Virus record (IMG/VR): IMGVR_UViG_3300014204_000120
Span: 73,850-137,849 of that record
Strand: one strand, 5' to 3'
Length of the DNA stretch: 64,000 nucleotides
DNA from: a virus
Lineage: Duplodnaviria; Caudoviricetes
Positions 52,410 to 57,794 of the stretch are shown piece after piece; positions within the stretch are counted from its first letter, which is position 1, and each line of letters starts with the position of its first letter. The notes under the pieces are model-generated. The model searched no databases and was not told where the DNA came from. It saw only the letters and a program-made list of their open reading frames with translations. A program made the position numbers and the translations under genes.

Positions 52410-53023
52410 CAGATAACGATAAATTATTTATTGGTAATGCAATAAGCCACTTAAATAATAAACATATAGAAGTTATATTCTCTAAACAAAATAACGTATA
52501 CCAAGAACACGAAAAAATTAAATGTACTGGTTACTTCGATTGTAAAAATAAAAGTCTAGTCGTTGCAACTGGTTTACCGCAAAAAAACTGGCTACCAGTA
52601 TTTTTACACGAATATTCTCATTTTATACAATGGCTTAATAAAGATAAACTATTTTATAAACTAATTGAAAATAAAAATCTACAAAACTATTTTTGGTATT
52701 GGTTACAAGGTCAAGAAATCAGACCTAAATCTAAAGTTATTGAATCAGCAAGAGCTATTCAAACTATGGAATATGAATGCGAAAAAATTGTATTTAATTT
52801 ACTACAAAAAAATAAACTAAGCATATTATATCAAGATTATGTTAAATATGCTAACATTGATGTATTATTTTATAACGTAGTTTTAAAATATCGTAGATGG
52901 TACGATATACCTCCGCATACAATACAATCTATATTAGATATAATTCCAATTGAACCAATAGATGATATAACTAAGGTAATACCTTTATTTAATGAACTAG
53001 TTCTTAAAAATTGTTTTAAATAA
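52406..53023 (+). CDS. HExxH metallopeptidase-like phage protein
   Basis: GYFD...LVVA...LHEYSHF.QW...E.ECE. Confidence 0.6.
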   Translation: MTDNDKLFIGNAISHLNNKHIEVIFSKQNNVYQEHEKIKCTGYFDCKNKSLVVATGLPQKNWLPVFLHEYSHFIQWLNKDKLFYKLIENKNLQNYFWYWLQGQEIRPKSKVIESARAIQTMEYECEKIVFNLLQKNKLSILYQDYVKYANIDVLFYNVVLKYRRWYDIPPHTIQSILDIIPIEPIDDITKVIPLFNELVLKNCFK

Positions 53024-53026
53024 CTC

Positions 53027-53055
53027 TTGACAAATTAATGGCGTTGATGTATATT
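53027..53055 (+). promoter_or_regulatory. Early sigma70 promoter
   Basis: TTGACA(53027)-N17 ending TGATG-TATATT(53050). Confidence 0.85.
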
Positions 53056-53097
53056 GTTTGAGATGAAACAAAAATCACTCAAACAGAAAGGTTTTAT

Positions 53098-54156
53098 ATG
53101 TCAGCCAATTTGAGTTATAACAAAGATGGAAAAGCGGAAATGTTCAGTGGTTCCGGAATTATACCTTGGCATAAAGAAGGTACGGTAATTTCCGGTCGTG
53201 CAACAGCCAGCGAAGCTTTGAAATTGGCTTCATTGAATTGGACTGTTGAAGGCTTCCCGGTCTTCTACAATAGTAATAATGACAAGTTGTTCAGTCCGGT
53301 TCAAATCCCAAATCAGTTTGTTAATCGCCGCACAGATAAAGACGGGACCGATTCTATTCTTGGGATTGTTGGAAAGAATTATCAGGTCGTGCAGAATGTT
53401 GATTGCTTTGACTTCTTCGATTCAATCATTGAGGCTAATCAGGCAATTTATGAATCTGCCGGTGCTTTGGATAACGGCAGAAAAGTTTGGATCCTCGCGA
53501 AACTCCCTTCACAGATTAAACTTCGTGGTGATGATATTGTTGATAAGTTCGTACTGCTTGCCACTTCACATGATGGTTCAACTAATCTGATGGCAAAAAT
53601 GACTGGTGTTCGTGTTGTGTGTCAGAATACTCTTCGTGCCGCAATGTCTGATAAGAGTGAAACTGTGCGTATCAGGCATAGTACCAATGCAAAGGATAAG
53701 ATTGCTGAGGCTGCTCGTGTTCTTGGATTGGTTAATACTGAGTGGGAGAAGGCAAAAGACCGGTATGAACACCTTACGGAAGTTAAGGTTGATACGATGA
53801 TGGTTGATTATTTCTTGGCTTATGTGCTTCCTTCAGTCGGTGTTAATCCTACACGTGCAACAAATATGCGTCAGGTTATTCAGGAATTGTTTGAAAGCAA
53901 AGGTAAAGGTTGTACGTTTGACAGCAGCAAAGGTACGGCTTGGGGTTTGTATAATGCTGTTACGGAATATATCACCCACGTTAAGACTTATAAAGAAAAT
54001 ACCAGTAAACTTGATGCAATTTGGTTTGGATCCGGAGATTCATTGTCTGGTAAGGCTTTTGAGTGTGCTATGAGCCTTGATAATACCAGCCGCGCAAAAA
54101 TGGAAGACTTGGTTAATACTGAAAAGAAAAAGACGAAGGAATGGGAAAGTCGGTAA
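53098..54156 (+). CDS. DUF932 / TIGR03299-type phage-plasmid protein
   Basis: PWH..G, LNW.V, LG.VG..Y..VQN...F.F, ESAGAL..GRKVW, SHDGS, RVVCQNTL, RH, GTAWGLYNAVTEY..H. Confidence 0.9.
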   Translation: MSANLSYNKDGKAEMFSGSGIIPWHKEGTVISGRATASEALKLASLNWTVEGFPVFYNSNNDKLFSPVQIPNQFVNRRTDKDGTDSILGIVGKNYQVVQNVDCFDFFDSIIEANQAIYESAGALDNGRKVWILAKLPSQIKLRGDDIVDKFVLLATSHDGSTNLMAKMTGVRVVCQNTLRAAMSDKSETVRIRHSTNAKDKIAEAARVLGLVNTEWEKAKDRYEHLTEVKVDTMMVDYFLAYVLPSVGVNPTRATNMRQVIQELFESKGKGCTFDSSKGTAWGLYNAVTEYITHVKTYKENTSKLDAIWFGSGDSLSGKAFECAMSLDNTSRAKMEDLVNTEKKKTKEWESR

Positions 54157-54202
54157 TCCAAAACAACAATAAGAAAGACTAAAAAATAATTTAAAATAAG
54201 CC

Positions 54203-54231
54203 TTGACATATTTAATCCCATGATGTATATT
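54203..54231 (+). promoter_or_regulatory. Early sigma70 promoter
   Basis: TTGACA(54203)-N17 ending TGATG-TATATT(54226). Confidence 0.85.
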
Positions 54232-54252
54232 GTTGTTGTAAGAGGATTAACT

Positions 54253-54387
54253 ATGAAAAAGGTACACTTCAAAGTCATTAAAGGAATATACATACCAAAA
54301 TTTCATGGTGGTAGACCTTCTGTTAAGTTCAAGAATAAGAAGAAATATAATAGGAAGACTAAACATACTAAAGAGGATGAAATATGA
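54253..54387 (+). CDS. 44-aa basic protein with KKKYNRKTKH motif (below the track cutoff)
   Basis: RBS gagga; first ORF after the promoter at 54203. Confidence 0.65.
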   Translation: MKKVHFKVIKGIYIPKFHGGRPSVKFKNKKKYNRKTKHTKEDEI

Positions 54388-54544
54388 CAATACTTTTTTA
54401 TCTGTTTTTAGGTTTAGTCGGCTTGATTGTTGCTTTTAAGTTGATTGGATTGGTATGGGCTTTAATACAAGATTGTGCAGGATTGGTATTCTCATTTATT
54501 GTTATGGGATTGTTTGTATTACTGATTACTTATATCTTTTAGTT

Positions 54545-54772
54545 ATGAAAATTGAAAACAATGATTTATTAAGAGTTGATTATAAAGGTTATATGGAGCC
54601 AATACTTTTGACTGCATGTAAACATCAGGCTACAAAAAGTAATGCTAAAACAAGAAGCAAATATATTAGATGGGCTGTTATTCGGGCTTTAATACAAGAT
54701 GGATATCCGTTAAATAAAATAACAAATAAATTTAATATGTTTTATAAATCAATGGGTTATACAGGGGAATGA
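54545..54772 (+). CDS. Small hypothetical protein, ribbon-helix-helix-like
   Basis: LRVDY...RSKYIRWAVIRAL; probable ATG 54545. Confidence 0.4.
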   Translation: MKIENNDLLRVDYKGYMEPILLTACKHQATKSNAKTRSKYIRWAVIRALIQDGYPLNKITNKFNMFYKSMGYTGE

Positions 54773-54815
54773 CATCATAGGTATAGTTGTGCGACATTTT
54801 CGGGAGCTTTTGATT

Positions 54816-55052
54816 ATGAAATATTGTACTAAGATGGGCTTGTGTGCGTGGCGTAGCCTTCTCAATGGTCGAGCGTCTTGTGTGTCAATGGAGCCGTGTG
54901 AACTGGCGGTGGCTCCCGAAAACGACGCACAACAACTACAAGCCAAAATTGCCGCTCTTGCTAACGAGATTGAGTGCCGCACGCGAGATCAGGTGTCCAT
55001 CAGTCCGTCAATGGTTGTCGAGCGGTTGCGGCAACTATCGGCTGTGCAGTAA
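54816..55052 (+). CDS. Cassette 1 ORF, runs through the attC-like hairpin
   Basis: RBS gggag; ends RLRQLSAVQ. Confidence 0.55.
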   Translation: MKYCTKMGLCAWRSLLNGRASCVSMEPCELAVAPENDAQQLQAKIAALANEIECRTRDQVSISPSMVVERLRQLSAVQ

Positions 55053-55090
55053 ACGTTGTAGTCAATTGATTTTTTGAAAGGAATTTATAT

Positions 55091-55303
55091 ATGCAGATTG
55101 TTTGTCAAACACATGGCGTTGGTGAAGGTGAGGTTCTTTGTTCCGAGTGTGTTAAACTTGTGGAACAAAAAATCAACAGCCTACAACAGCTAAAGGCTGA
55201 AATTGCCTTATTGCTAAATACGTGGGATAACACTACTAAGCAACAGTTTCTTGATACGTGGGTTTTGCGCATTAAGCGACTACGGCAACTGTCAGCCGTT
55301 TAG
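55091..55303 (+). CDS. Cassette 2 ORF, runs through the attC-like hairpin
   Basis: RBS aagga; C..H...C..C; ends RLRQLSAV. Confidence 0.55.
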   Translation: MQIVCQTHGVGEGEVLCSECVKLVEQKINSLQQLKAEIALLLNTWDNTTKQQFLDTWVLRIKRLRQLSAV

Positions 55304-55346
55304 CGGGACGTTGTAGTCAATAACGCCACACGAAAGGCAGTTTAAT

Positions 55347-55586
55347 ATGCGCCGCCGAGACGTTGACAAAGAGTTAGCAGATATACAGCGTACATTAAAT
55401 TTCCGTGGCGATCAGCAGGTAATGGCTGCAACAAATAGTGGTATGAATGAGTTAAAAATGTTGGCATTTAGGATTGGTTGCTGTAGGGTGGCGCTGGACA
55501 CTAAGGAAAGTGTGGCGTTACAGCCTACAACAGCGCCATGCTGCGAGGGCGAAGCGCCACATGCCGAAACCGGCACGTCAGCATAG
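55347..55586 (+). CDS. Cassette 3 ORF, runs through the attC-like hairpin
   Basis: RBS aaagg; stop 8 nt before the GTT core. Confidence 0.5.
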   Translation: MRRRDVDKELADIQRTLNFRGDQQVMAATNSGMNELKMLAFRIGCCRVALDTKESVALQPTTAPCCEGEAPHAETGTSA

Positions 55587-55920
55587 CGCGAACCGTTGGT
55601 GTCAAGCGGCTGCGGCCGAGATTGGGGGTTTCAAGTGAGGATATACCTGAACCGTGGTGAAAAGTTGGCGAAACTAATACTGATGATAAAAGGTTTAAAA
55701 ATCTTGAAGCAACTATAGAACTTGTTAATAAACTTTTATTTGATATATGTCTAGTCTCAAGCAATTCACTATGTCAAGAATTTTCTAAAGTGCGCGCAGG
55801 TAAAGCAGCTAAGCAATTTTTGGAAGATATTAAAGGAATTAATTAATTGGCCATACAGAAACAACATATATTCCTAAAGTTCCTAAATGATGTCTGTTAA
55901 AAATAAAATGGATATACCTC

Positions 55921-55949
55921 TTGACAAATTAATGGACCTGATGTATATT
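55921..55949 (+). promoter_or_regulatory. Early sigma70 promoter
   Basis: TTGACA(55921)-N17 ending TGATG-TATATT(55944); nearly identical to the 53027 copy. Confidence 0.85.
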
Positions 55950-55973
55950 TGATTTATCAAAGGAGAAGTTAAT

Positions 55974-56258
55974 ATGTCAAATGTTCTTGCCATTATTAAA
56001 CAATCAGCAGTTGAAACTTTTCCAAATACACCAAGGTATAAGGCAAGATTCTTGGTAAGGTCTTCAAGTTCAAATAAGAATTATATGGTATCTTATGATG
56101 CTGCTCCTGGTGCCGGTTATTGGACTTGTTCATGTAGAGGTAATATTGCACACGGACAATGTAAACACCTTTCAATTATAGGACTTAAAGGTAGAAAGTA
56201 TGGACATAATCTGCTTTCTAAACAAGAAGTCGAACAACTAAATCAACTTGGTCAATAA
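55974..56258 (+). CDS. SWIM zinc-finger protein
   Basis: V.SSS...Y.V...WTCSC.......CKH. Confidence 0.8.
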   Translation: MSNVLAIIKQSAVETFPNTPRYKARFLVRSSSSNKNYMVSYDAAPGAGYWTCSCRGNIAHGQCKHLSIIGLKGRKYGHNLLSKQEVEQLNQLGQ

Positions 56259-56566
56259 TGAAAACTAAACGTAAATCTATTTGGGATGATAATTATTCGC
56301 CTTATGGAACTTATAAAGGTCCAAAAGGCAATCCTAAACAATGGAAGGATGCATTTGAATTTGTAATGAATGGTACGCAAGCTGCTGAAATTATCCAAAA
56401 TGATTCACCTTGGTCTATTCTAGGCCTTAAGATTGGAGCGACTATAGAAGATATTAAAAATGCCTTTAGAAGGCTTGCTCTAATAAATCATCCGGATAAA
56501 GGTGGAAATTCAAACATTTTTATGAAAATTCGCGCGGCATATGTTATATTAACCAATAACCATTAA
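56258..56566 (+). CDS. J-domain (DnaJ-like) protein
   Basis: PWSILGL...A...DIK.AFRRLA..NHPDKGG....F..I..AY..L. Confidence 0.9.
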   Translation: MKTKRKSIWDDNYSPYGTYKGPKGNPKQWKDAFEFVMNGTQAAEIIQNDSPWSILGLKIGATIEDIKNAFRRLALINHPDKGGNSNIFMKIRAAYVILTNNH

Positions 56567-56582
56567 TGAAAGGGTGTGTTGT

Positions 56583-57431
56583 ATGATTGATTCCTTGAAT
56601 GAGGAACAAGTCAAGATGATGGATGTTTACTGTAAGAAGTTCATTGATATTGGATATTCCACTGAGCCATTTACGCTCGAGGAAGCAATCAATATCATGA
56701 ATCCTTTTTATGAAACTATTCTGAAGCAGGCCAAGCCTGAGCAGGTGTTGGTGTTTCCTTCACCTCTTGCTGTTTGGAGTTATATTCAGAAACAGATTGG
56801 ATCCAATATTGGTTTTGTGTGGCCGTATTTGTCAGGCTCTTTTGATGCAAACATTTTCGCGCTGTATGATTACTGTATTGAGGTTTTGCATATCAATATC
56901 AGTGATGATTTGCTTGAGAAGTATAACATATGGAAACGCACACTGAAACTTGGTTTGATATTTGCTTTTGATGATGTTTGTATTATCAGTGAAAAACCTG
57001 TGGAATATCACAGGAAGAACGGTGTGTTGCATTGTGAAACAGGTCCGGCTATTCGCTTCAAAGATGATTTTTCTTTGTGGATCCTGAATGGTGTTCGTAT
57101 GAAAAAAGAGCATGTAGAAACACCGTGGGATAAAATTGATATCTATAGTGTTATTAAAGAAACCAATCTTGAGGTCCGCAGAGAACTTGTAAGAAAAGTC
57201 GGCATGGAAAGATTGATTACGGAACTCGGTGCAACGACAATCGATCAAGAAGGTGACTACGAACTGCTTGAACTGAATATTGGTGATGGCAATCGTAGGC
57301 CTTATCTTAAAATGAAAAATCCCAGTATTGGAGTGTGGCATGTGGAAGGAGTGCCGCCTAATACTAAGACTGTGAAGGAAGCATTGGTTTTCCGTAATGG
57401 TACTGATGAAGAGCCCGATTTTTTGAGCTAA
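56583..57431 (+). CDS. DUF6745-like protein
   Basis: ISEKP......G.LH...GPAIRF.D.F.L....GV; N.EVRR.....G.ER; PS.....EGVPP...TV.EA; probable ATG 56583. Confidence 0.7.
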   Translation: MIDSLNEEQVKMMDVYCKKFIDIGYSTEPFTLEEAINIMNPFYETILKQAKPEQVLVFPSPLAVWSYIQKQIGSNIGFVWPYLSGSFDANIFALYDYCIEVLHINISDDLLEKYNIWKRTLKLGLIFAFDDVCIISEKPVEYHRKNGVLHCETGPAIRFKDDFSLWILNGVRMKKEHVETPWDKIDIYSVIKETNLEVRRELVRKVGMERLITELGATTIDQEGDYELLELNIGDGNRRPYLKMKNPSIGVWHVEGVPPNTKTVKEALVFRNGTDEEPDFLS

Positions 57432-57482
57432 GCAATATAAATAACAATAAACTGAGGTTTTCACTTTATTCAAGGAGGTTGT

Positions 57483-57794
57483 ATGTTGATTCAGCAGGGT
57501 GATGTGTTGCTTCGTGCCGTTAAGAGTATGCCAAAGGGTAAGAAAGTTGAACGTAAGGCACGCGGCTATGTGCTGGCAGAAGGTGAAGTAACAGGCCATG
57601 CGCATGTGATTGAGGATGAAATTGACCTGATTCTTGATGAGGCTTCCGGTAAGATGTTCATGACAAATGCCGAAGAAGTCACAGTCAAGCATGAGGAACA
57701 TCATCATGTCAATGTTCCTGCTGGTATTTGGGAAGTTGGCATTGTGAAGGAATACGACCACTTCGCAGAGGAAGCCAAGAACGTTGCAGACTAA
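57483..57794 (+). CDS. Conserved His-rich partner of DUF6745-like proteins
   Basis: QQGDVL, LAEGEVTGHAH, HEEH, G.W.V....EYD; RBS aaggagg. Confidence 0.75.
   Translation: MLIQQGDVLLRAVKSMPKGKKVERKARGYVLAEGEVTGHAHVIEDEIDLILDEASGKMFMTNAEEVTVKHEEHHHVNVPAGIWEVGIVKEYDHFAEEAKNVAD

Follow-up and report, generated by a model that had tools for sequence, protein, structure and literature searches.

A hairpin-bounded gene array in the early region of a large phage suggests an integron-like system of module shuffling

The window (the whole 64,000-nucleotide stretch of phage DNA analysed here, whose numbering is used throughout) contains at 54786-55606 three GC-rich units (47% GC in a phage of 28% GC), each with a bulged hairpin that resembles attC and has invariant CAAC/GTTG cores at its base (Table 1). 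All of the cores named in the initial annotation, and the hairpin it quoted, were recovered in place and with exact sequence: GTTGTGCG at 54786 and its complement CGCACAAC at 54926-54933, GTTGTAG at 55055 and 55310, CTACAAC at 55181 and 55525, GTTGGTG at 55595, and the hairpin CTACAAC-A-GCTAAAGGCTGA-AA-TTGCC...GGCAA-CTG-TCAGCC-G-TTTAGC-GGGAC-GTTGTAG. The left junction of the array is constant (TATA/GTTG at 54786, the slash marking the junction), and the last core, which had been described as lacking a partner, is present but appears to be followed by the remnant of a decayed site (55605-55674), with a 3'-arm-like copy at 55605-55629 and, as read from the sequence, GTTGGCGAAAC at 55664-55674. 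The proposal that the 54203 promoter is followed by a cassette array, co-oriented and with folded, attC-like sites, is supported. A promoter/terminator check of the array region found only this promoter and its twin at 55921-55949, with none at unit boundaries, and no terminator-like sites. With three co-oriented sites in 0.7 kb and no integrase nearby, the array corresponds to a CALIN (at least two co-oriented sites in a few kb, integrase absent nearby), a label that applies only if the sites count as attC-type.

The array forms an island of ~0.47-0.53 GC in surroundings of 0.28-0.30, and the other array carriers have 35-51% GC, compared with 28% for this phage; judged by its composition, the array appears to be foreign DNA, recently imported into a T4-like phage. 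The record of this phage (G000) spans 138 kb and is 53% complete, and the T4 Gp23 capsid gene is found in it only, not in the other four carrier genomes considered below (G001-G004). A blastn search of the region against 50,697 phage records gave no match, no relatives of the neighbouring DUF932 gene were found, and tRNA and Rfam scans returned nothing in the arrays and only a tmRNA elsewhere.

Table 1. Features of the array region (positions within the window)
Feature	Position	Strand	Evidence or remark
Early-type sigma-70-like promoter, TTGACA-17-TATATT	54203..54231	+	11/12 matches; its transcription unit contains the array
Array start: first GTTG core and arm A of unit 1 (GTTGTGCGACATTTTCGGGAGC, includes Shine-Dalgarno GGGAG)	54786..54807	+	
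Segment variable among close relatives in other metagenomes	54790..55898	.	loose contig ends after 54790 and 54794, before 55898
ORF1, 78 aa	54816..55052	+	C-terminal half QQLQAKIAAL...RLRQLSAVQ encoded by hairpin 1
Arm A' of unit 1, core CGCACAAC at its end	54912..54933	+	91% complementary to 54786-54807
Hairpin site 1, NNNCAAC ... GTTGNNN, attC-like	54927..55061	+	model R1 112.5 bits, E 3e-26; fold
GTTG core and arm A, unit 2	55055..55076	+	start/own-core pairing
ORF2, 70 aa	55091..55303	+	N-terminal module MQIVCQTHG... and C-terminal hairpin module, each recombined with many partners
Arm A' of unit 2, CTACAAC at end; breakpoint hot spot 55182-55184	55166..55187	+	start/own-core pairing; loose contig ends
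Hairpin site 2: R box, 12-bp L box with bulged G, 7-bp inner stem, variable loop	55181..55316	+	R1 122.1 bits; covariation
GTTG core and arm A, unit 3	55310..55331	+	start/own-core pairing
ORF3, 79 aa	55347..55586	+	stop inside hairpin 3
Arm A' of unit 3, CTACAAC at end	55510..55531	+	start/own-core pairing
Hairpin site 3, short variant	55525..55601	+	R1 25.5 bits, E 5e-4 in genome search; fold
Terminal core GTTGGTGTCAAG, then putative decayed fourth site	55595..55674	+	68% copy

As initially proposed, the open reading frames, which have ribosome-binding sites, pass through the hairpins, each stopping 5-11 nt upstream of the next GTTG. The shared peptide ascribed to every ORF (QQL.A.IA...RLRQLSAV) is common, as QQL..IA...RLRQLSAV, to ORF1 and ORF2 but not to ORF3, whose hairpin is a shorter, different one. 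Pfam and PHROGs searches with ORF1-3 gave nothing above threshold, and AlphaFold predicts ORF2 to be one long helix, which does not inform its function. The array products resemble small helical early proteins, a cargo that looks early and is probably host-directed. The shared C-terminal module is carried by 318 protein clusters, in which N- and C-terminal parts are paired in a mosaic fashion, with hundreds of combinations. A metagenome search with ORF2 found a single short locus (L158), and this too is mosaic, in agreement with independent assortment of modules.

Two kinds of module can be told apart. Hairpin modules read CAAC-A-(12-bp L box carrying a single bulged base)-(inner stem)-variable loop-...-RRAC-GTTG, while inter-hairpin modules consist of NNN-SAAT-stem arm, ribosome-binding site, ATG, N-terminal coding part and stem arm-ACAGC-NNN, their ends pairing over ~20 nt. 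The hairpin fold is borne out by covariation: a MAFFT alignment of 10 sites contains eight pairs with changes on both sides, a number reached by 0 of 500 shuffles, and 40 model-aligned sites contain 190 double-changed cells (55.6 when shuffled), with a covariation score of 0.489 as compared with 0.03-0.09 for slid partners. The L box and inner stem covary, with 93-95% of cells paired, and CAAC and GTTG are nearly invariant across sites. Compensatory stem changes, from TTGCC/GGCAA to TTTCC/GGAAA or TTTTAGCA/TGCTAAAA, alter the encoded residues, indicating that it is the nucleic acid that is conserved and not the peptide.

Each unit also begins with a sequence complementary to the one that ends in its own CAAC core. 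This complementarity had been noted over 7-8 nt; it is real, and its extent is in fact 22 nt, with 86-91% identity to the complement in all three units, the arms themselves differing between units. Three pairs with a complementarity of at least 19/22 were observed, compared with none in 100 shuffles. Own-start pairing reaches 13-16 of 20 positions beyond the core in well-called units. Its mean over all 40 units is 9.8, whereas pairing with the downstream arm averages 6.1 and that of random pairs 5.8.

The two strands of the sites are not equivalent, and the indicators of strand conflict. G:T wobbles are more frequent in the antisense hairpin than in the sense hairpin (2.0 and 0.73 per site; p 6e-6), and in 46 of 57 sites it is also the antisense hairpin that has the greater stability (mean 1.64 kcal/mol). 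In attC, the bottom strand is likewise more stable and richer in G:T than the top (PMC5027507). This skew mirrors that between the attC bottom and top strands and is opposite to what would be expected for a selected mRNA fold, pointing to DNA rather than mRNA. On the coding strand, on the other hand, extra bases are commoner in the 3' arm (2.31 versus 0.98 per site; p 1.5e-4), so that the coding strand has bottom-strand geometry as defined for attC (PMC5027507). Thus, the extra bases opposite AAC equate the sense strand with the attC bottom strand, whereas the G:T skew and stability equate the antisense strand with it.

Cassette order at the locus is not fixed in relatives, a check that the initial annotation had suggested. 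Landfill and groundwater contigs from other samples (assembled metagenome contigs at 88% likeness) carry other cassettes at the same locus, with breakpoints exactly at the cores. The left flank is common to these contigs up to 54790 or 54794 and then runs into two other cassettes (GTTGT/ACGCAAT... and GTTGTGCGA/AAT...). Hairpin 2 is joined to other sequence at 55182-55184 in at least eight contigs, loose ends fall before the same positions in runs X3, X5 and X8, and one downstream module (GTTGTA/AGAAATTCGCCCG...) occurs after both hairpin 1 and hairpin 2, where only ACGTTGTA is shared. Mean word depth is 3.6-12.7 for array contigs and 30-130 for flank contigs; neither a circle junction nor an empty site was found among the metagenome contigs examined. 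Either half of the R box can be a breakpoint, a pattern that canonical one-strand integron recombination does not produce. Both 'whole gene = cassette', the unit of one gene plus hairpin in the annotation, and 'hairpin + next N-terminus' were rejected as the sole unit of exchange, a hairpin being linked to neither of its neighbours: hairpin modules and N-terminal modules assort independently.

Beyond this phage, a covariance model finds co-oriented arrays of 3 to ~25 sites in unrelated large phages. Genome searches gave 15 matches at E<=0.1 in G001 (~25 at E<=1 in its first 16 kb), 14 in G002, seven in G003 and six in G004; within an array the matches are all on one strand, except that some of the strongest sites give a weak echo on the opposite strand. 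The array loci share no flanking DNA between phages, and few modules were common to different arrays in an all-against-all comparison. A 14-mer junction scan of viral contigs yielded real arrays in L015, L025, L052 and L054 among mostly chance matches, while exact scans of viral contigs for the hairpin 2 loop and ORF2 start found none. Among bacteria, searches of 151 sampled genomes each gave sites in 4 genomes of Bacteroidota and in 0 of Pseudomonadota, a small enrichment; one Bacteroidota genome (G086) has two sites at a distance of 0.6-1.7 kb from recombinase homologues. When 185,579 species genomes were scanned with 20-mers, the three matches obtained were chance ones in ordinary QQLKAEI-encoding genes, and model R1 found nothing in the genomes concerned.

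Some related arrays directly adjoin a gene for a small, XerA/IntI-like tyrosine recombinase. At L117, where the array includes the site type of the window itself, a gene at 4149-4946 matches PF00589 at 1e-26 and ends in a stop codon 7 nt ahead of the first array core. Seven of 80 viral loci with recombinase homologues, mostly the best-ranked, have arrays within 6 kb (L165, L167, L170, L173, L178, L181, L206), and the adjacency occurs in two orientations. The array-linked recombinases are XerA-like proteins of 266-289 aa that lack the IntI-specific segment: their best family is XerA_Arch (130-208 bits, cut-off 220), their best solved structure is 4A8E (XerA), followed by 2A3V (IntI4), and they match TIGR02249 at 101-157 bits (cut-off 265) in two stretches, with profile positions ~178-237 skipped. 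Consistent with the absence of an integrase from the window noted earlier, neither a PF00589 match nor a homologue of the linked recombinases was found in this 138-kb record. Tyrosine recombinases and linked-type homologues were likewise not found in G001-G004, of which G001 and G002 are complete genomes; no recombinase was found among the array neighbours in G001, nor among the tested ORFs of at least 140 aa next to the G002, G003 and L122 arrays, nor in the one ORF of this size tested at the G004 locus. The five carrier genomes contain no serine recombinase or Y1 transposase (PF01797), and a reverse transcriptase is present in one copy in G004 and in none of the other four. The earlier integron-style reading is therefore retained in part: related arrays do abut a recombinase of the Xer/IntI superfamily, but the sites are not canonical attC and the recombinase is XerA-like. 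A small Xer-type recombinase serving a widespread, integron-like, module-shuffling system is a likely account of such arrays, with catalysis by the linked enzyme as the step that we infer.

For the region studied here, we think it probable that it represents a recombinase-less, CALIN-like array of an integron-like system of phages and Bacteroidota. Two kinds of module would alternate along the array, joined at invariant 4-nt cores, and a small XerA/IntI-like tyrosine recombinase would recognise the folded, single-stranded hairpin and carry out strand exchange within the CAAC/GTTG core, in the manner of IntI at attC. Here the enzyme would act in trans or be encoded in the missing half of this genome; trans action is assumed because no tyrosine recombinase was found in this record or in G001-G004. 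The activity of the enzyme would insert, delete and reshuffle modules and, since the reading frames of the small early genes span the sites, every exchange would create a new combination of N-terminal module and hairpin-encoded C-terminal module. No such integron-like system was found in the literature searched. More tentatively, and with the balance tilting against it, the arrays may belong to an undescribed integron analogue, common to large phages and possibly to Bacteroidota that could be their hosts, that is run by small XerA-like recombinases. In its 'read-through' form, represented here, the sites would be coding, exchange would use both core halves, and recombination would continuously shuffle protein modules, joining variable N-terminal 'heads' to hairpin-encoded C-terminal helices or zinc-ribbon-like tails of small early proteins.

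Other explanations bear on the same observations. It is possible, though unlikely, that no dedicated recombinase is involved, the conserved arms acting as short homologies at which very active homologous or microhomology recombination by the phage itself swaps modules, as proposed for PeSL, and the hairpins serving transcription, mRNA stability or translation control. This phage is T4-like, and for phages of this kind module shuffling through PeSL has been documented (PMC4122927, PMC2839356); breakpoints at both ends of every module, a variable segment whose right edge (55898) falls immediately ahead of the next early promoter, an arm A that overlaps or abuts the ribosome-binding site, and complete carriers without a recombinase (G001 and G002) would also fit. 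However, some junctions share only 8 nt, exchange by homology would not require conserved bulges, asymmetric spacers or an invariant AAC/GTT, the G:T skew favours the antisense strand and not an mRNA, and the same sites occur in non-T4 phages and also beside Xer-like recombinase genes.

We consider it very improbable that the array is a genuine integron array, with canonical attC sites made and kept by a host IntI. RYYYAAC fits only 3 of 61 sites and GTTRRRY 4 of 59, although recombinase-linked arrays with the opposite gene orientation come nearer to the consensus (TAAC/GTTA). Cross-tests against authentic Vibrio attC failed in both directions, with models that are both narrow: a home-made model of 12 Vibrio-type attC sites found 0 of ~55 phage sites, and our R2 model matched only 2 of 15 authentic Vibrio attC sites, at E 0.6-1.6 and through the R box alone. 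A coding strand with bottom-strand geometry, linked recombinases that lack the IntI-specific segment and score below the TIGR02249 cut-off, and the absence of sites from the sampled Pseudomonadota genomes also speak against host IntI, despite R and L boxes, an unpaired spacer, extra bases, a variable loop, a site size of 45-175 nt and co-oriented promoterless cassettes, all as an integron would have them, and despite the precedent of CALINs in virulent phages, where IntI1 recombines five of six tested sites (PMC9892861).

A static, tandem-duplicated family of small genes, in which the shared hairpins are only an mRNA or protein feature and nothing is currently mobile, would account for three ORFs that are paralogous in their C-terminal parts and for contigs without a circle junction, but it is very improbable: the other cassettes at the same junction in sister populations largely refute it, and the foreign GC, the modules common to unrelated phages and the hundreds of N-/C-terminal combinations also speak against it. 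Least probable of all are non-autonomous single-strand transposons of the IS200/IS605 type (PATE-like), in which a Y1 HUH transposase would read subterminal hairpins and cut at GTTG, each copy being the next target: in principle such a mechanism could fit the bulged hairpins, the asymmetry of the strands, the fixed, cleavage-like core of 4 nt and the growth in tandem, given the hairpins and tetranucleotide cut of the IS608 mechanism, but the five carrier genomes lack a Y1 transposase, the arrays adjoin tyrosine recombinase genes, and the cores form an inverted pair CAAC...GTTG, as in attC, and not left- and right-end sites.

In the prevailing view, integrons are a bacterial invention operated by IntI. 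In unrelated large phages, the same logic appears to be followed with another, smaller recombinase and with sites of a distinct design. If true, this would explain the gain of orphan genes in the hyperplastic early regions of large phages, show recombination sites doubling as coding sequence, provide a second, independent example of structure-specific single-strand recombination sites, and imply gene flow between phages and possibly Bacteroidota chromosomes that standard integron surveys are expected to miss, since neither sites nor recombinase conform to the canonical definitions.

The array shares with integrons and CALINs its co-oriented promoterless cassettes behind a promoter (PMC9892861). 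Also shared are imperfect hairpins with an R box (AAC/GTT), L box, unpaired spacer, extra bases and variable loop, first bases complementary to the unit's own far core, the skew in G:T and stability between strands and, in some carriers, a tyrosine recombinase of the same superfamily at the array end. Unlike in integrons, the cores are NNNCAAC/GTTGNNN and not RYYYAAC/GTTRRRY, the spacer is 1 x 4-5 nt, own-start pairing extends over ~20 nt and not 7-9 nt, both R-box halves are breakpoints, and the recombinase, of 266-289 aa, has no IntI insert. The bulged G lies 18-19 nt from the site end, compared with 16 in attC, a position that we take from the G16 label (PMC5027507) as matched to an aadA attC sequence. 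Translation passes through the site, and the coding strand is the bottom-like one, the reverse of integrons, in which genes on the strand with bottom-strand geometry are reported as never observed (PMC5027507). Arrays reach ~25 units in large phages, whereas published phage CALINs have ~2-4 sites where described, only a minimum of two sites being stated (PMC9892861).

The PeSL of T4-type phages are similarly short, conserved stem-loop motifs; they flank small early ORFs whose function is unknown, belong to hyperplastic regions and mark the points at which modules are exchanged (PMC2839356, PMC4122927). They differ in being intergenic, in combining a promoter with a terminator and in being thought to act via homology, whereas here there is no promoter per unit and the sites are coding, covarying, closed by AAC/GTT and, in relatives, linked to a recombinase gene. 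Compared by eye, the sites do not resemble the 28-bp dif type: no XerC arm, 6-bp spacer and XerD arm could be aligned, no TTATGTTAAAT-like arm was visible, and the three core-adjacent bases are free to vary. A partial resemblance of some cores to the XerC arm of dif (GCGCAYAAY) was considered and dropped, because only one core type shows it. Among Xer-dependent elements, CTX-phage-type integration uses a folded single-stranded dif-like hairpin as the Xer substrate, and the pdif modules of Acinetobacter plasmids are bounded by alternately inverted Xer sites. The arrays described here have in common with these elements a recombinase of the Xer family, while their sites are long bulged hairpins in arrays.

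All of the elements named in the initial annotation were found where it had placed them. The array forms a GC island in the window (54786-55606; ~0.47-0.53 GC vs 0.28-0.30 in the flanks and 0.291 in the whole 138-kb record) inside an early transcription unit whose promoter lies at 54203, and the island stops short of a twin promoter at 55921. Each of its tandem units runs from a GTTG core through a 22-nt arm (A), a ribosome-binding site and ATG, and an N-terminal coding stretch to a second arm (A'), which terminates in NNNCAAC and is followed by an imperfect hairpin closing on the GTTG of the next unit. The arm sequences are unit-specific, with A/A' complementarity of 86-91% in units 1-3, and three such pairs occur in the window vs none in 100 shuffles. 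That the reading frames cross the hairpins, as had been proposed, was borne out, with stops 5-11 nt upstream of the next core. Repeat comparison and direct sequence reading reveal the decayed remains of another site 3' of the last core (55595).

Units and reading frames of the window array
Feature	Position in window	Remark
Unit 1	54786-55054	tandem with units 2 and 3
Unit 2	55055-55309	tandem with units 1 and 3
Unit 3	55310-55594	tandem with units 1 and 2
ORF1	54816-55052	reads through hairpin
ORF2	55091-55303	reads through hairpin
ORF3	55347-55586	reads through hairpin

Immediately 3' of the decayed site, an AT-rich open frame without a start codon (KVGETNTDDKRFKNLEATIELVNKLL...KGIN*; 55660-55850) falls within a population-variable segment and may be a native gene cut off by cassette insertion. 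Upstream of the array, an exact 17-nt direct repeat, GGGCTTTAATACAAGAT (54457-54473 and 54684-54700), has its copies in two adjacent small AT-rich ORFs.

An exact 20-mer probe from the hairpin 5' arm retrieved seven large viral contigs, each with the same anatomy, including a unit-specific A/A' helix. When ten sites were aligned with MAFFT, 95% of cells in the L box and inner stem proved to be paired, and eight pairs have changed on both sides, a number reached by 0 of 500 shuffles; across 40 sites, in an alignment fitted to the model itself, the covariation signal is very strong, with 190 double-change cells vs 55.6 shuffled. Some compensatory stem changes alter the peptide, e.g. A to S or Q to K, so it is the nucleic-acid fold, rather than the encoded protein, that is conserved. 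The gene-strand consensus reads ACAGC-NNN-CAAC-A-[6 bp]-[6 bp]-AA-[7 bp]...loop...[7 bp]-CTA-[6]-G-[6, holding the stop codon]-RRAC-GTTG-NNN-SAAT. Three bases 3' of GTTG pair with three 5' of the next CAAC, and this own-start helix extends further, with 13-16 of the next 20 positions paired in well-called units (mean 9.8 of 20 over all 40 units vs about 6 for downstream or random arms).

Other module types were also seen. Very stable rod modules with no convincing ORF between hairpins (L153:5127-5311 and L153:8908-9030, in array-carrying genome G001, and L156:1027-1187, in carrier G003) have an A/A' helix of ~35 bp (dG -41 kcal/mol, z-score -8.2), with identical 24-nt arms around interiors that differ from array to array. 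A second hairpin type, on viral contigs L153, L154, L157, L121 and L122, encodes zinc-ribbon-like Cys-rich tails (..NCQSAPCxxC...CxxC..), and each arm of its palindromic DNA carries CxxC motifs; a third type encodes NTGSPKL...QLRAGA.

G:T wobbles are 2.7 times commoner on the antisense than on the sense strand (p 6e-6), and in 46 of 57 sites the antisense strand folds more stably than the sense strand (by 1.64 kcal/mol). As this skew is opposite to the expected outcome of selection on mRNA, function at the DNA level is favoured. Extra bases (a bulged G, longer spacers) lie opposite AAC on the coding strand, and extra bases on that side are the recombinogenic geometry by a published criterion (PMC5027507), with which arrays of the opposite gene orientation agree. 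The two strand indicators conflict in read-through arrays; in view of this and of the breakpoints at both core halves, both strands may be used. The substrate strand, like the functions of the encoded proteins, is inferred.

R1, a covariance model built from phage hairpin sites, matched one complete 213-kb genome 15 times at E<=0.1 (~25 times in the first 16 kb at E<=1). A 467-kb genome yielded 14 sites, two further contigs 7 and 6, and this phage's record the three window sites only. Within an array, the matches share one strand, except for a few weak ones that echo the strongest sites on the opposite strand. The carriers are unrelated phages; a T4-type capsid gene is found in this phage alone, and the carrier loci have only cassette pieces in common. 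Array GC matches genome GC in the other carriers, whereas the window array stands 19 points above its genome and was therefore imported. In G001, both sub-arrays start with an identical, terminator-like AT-rich mini-hairpin closed by CAAC/GTTG cores (ATACAAC...AAAGGTTGCC-ATTAAAAC-GGCAACCTTT-TGTTTA-GTTG; L153:3790-3854 and L153:10419-10483), which may be an array entry site. G003 encodes a tmRNA of its own (Rfam RF00023, 160 bits; L156:11565-11925); the gene adjoins one for an RNA ligase and lies 2 kb away from a solitary cassette.

Assembled contigs from four other landfill/groundwater runs were mapped onto window 53000-57500. By contig depth, a rough measure, flank contigs average 30-130 and array contigs 3.6-12.7, consistent with the window's array version being a minority variant in those runs. 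Flank contigs match to 54790 or 54794 and then enter other cassettes, each of which opens in the typical way, with a core, a stem and a ribosome-binding site; the variable segment ends on the right at 55898. At least eight contigs fuse other sequence to hairpin 2 precisely at 55182-55184, many carry the arms of hairpin 2 without its loop, and one downstream module occurs 3' of hairpin 1 as well as of hairpin 2, although the two hairpins have only ACGTTGTA in common at that point. Among proteins, the ORF2 N-terminus is paired with at least eight distinct C-termini, and its C-terminal module, which lies at the extreme end of 318 clusters (50% identity), with at least nine N-termini; viral locus L158 places the N-terminal module behind another hairpin. 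Together, these junctions and mosaics show that hairpin modules and the modules between them assort independently of each other and that crossovers fall within the 4-nt cores. On the evidence of the contigs, proteins and L158, neither a gene plus its hairpin nor a hairpin plus the next N-terminus is the sole unit. A second variable spot (54156-54182), flanked by the DUF932 gene and the early promoter, holds 395 other bases in a well-covered contig of metagenome run X3 (depth 30.9).

Consistent with the earlier observation that the window lacks an integrase, no tyrosine recombinase, serine recombinase or Y1 transposase was found in five carrier genomes (two complete; this phage's record 53% complete), only one of which encodes a reverse transcriptase (G004:C1:96779-97483, PF00078, 9e-23). 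A screen of array neighbours identified, on the 47.6-kb viral contig L117, a gene for a 266-aa tyrosine recombinase (PF00589, 1e-26) whose stop codon lies 7 nt upstream of the first core of an array that includes the window's own site type (L117 6156-6300, 122 bits). The protein is XerA/IntI-like, scoring under every curated cut-off, and among solved structures it comes closest to XerA (4A8E), followed by IntI4 (2A3V). When 80 viral loci with recombinase homologues were scanned with R2, a second phage-site model, seven, mostly the best-ranked, had arrays <=6 kb from the homologue, and their recombinases are all of the same XerA-like kind. In two of these, the array begins 7 and 43 nt past the stop codon and small genes read through the sites, as in the window; several others have normal-sized genes on the opposite strand, with a TAAC/GTTA-core site after every gene. 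In a small sample, R2 matched 4 of 151 Bacteroidota genomes vs 0 of 151 Pseudomonadota genomes, and one Bacteroidota genome has two sites 0.6 and 1.7 kb from recombinase homologues, an adjacency unlikely to arise by chance. We infer that the array-linked recombinase catalyses exchange at the hairpin sites. Our literature search found no paper that describes an XerA-like-recombinase phage array system.

Among phages, module exchange has its closest parallel in the PeSL motifs of T4-type phages (PMC2839356, PMC4122927), which are promoter/terminator homologies, none of which occurs at the window's unit boundaries. CALINs, clusters of attC sites without an integrase, are already known from a few virulent phages (PMC9892861). 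The proposal of an integron-style array holds only in part: the phage sites depart from the attC core consensus, gene orientation relative to the site differs in read-through arrays, and the array-linked recombinases lack the IntI-specific segment (profile positions about 178-237 of the integron-integrase model are skipped in the L117 protein). A comparison with an attC covariance model had also been suggested; with our own models, both narrow, no clear cross-recognition was seen in either direction. In an authentic integron (Vibrio phage MK672802, 28.3-41.4 kb), cassette start and own inverse core are complementary over ~9 nt (GTTATGCAA/TTGCATAAC), a baseline for the 20-nt pairing of the phage-site family. 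The antisense-strand skew of the phage sites, however, equals the bottom/top skew of attC in size and direction (PMC5027507), the opposite-strand TAAC/GTTA arrays near recombinases have the classical gene-then-site layout, and phage arrays share their logic and much of their site anatomy with integrons and CALINs.
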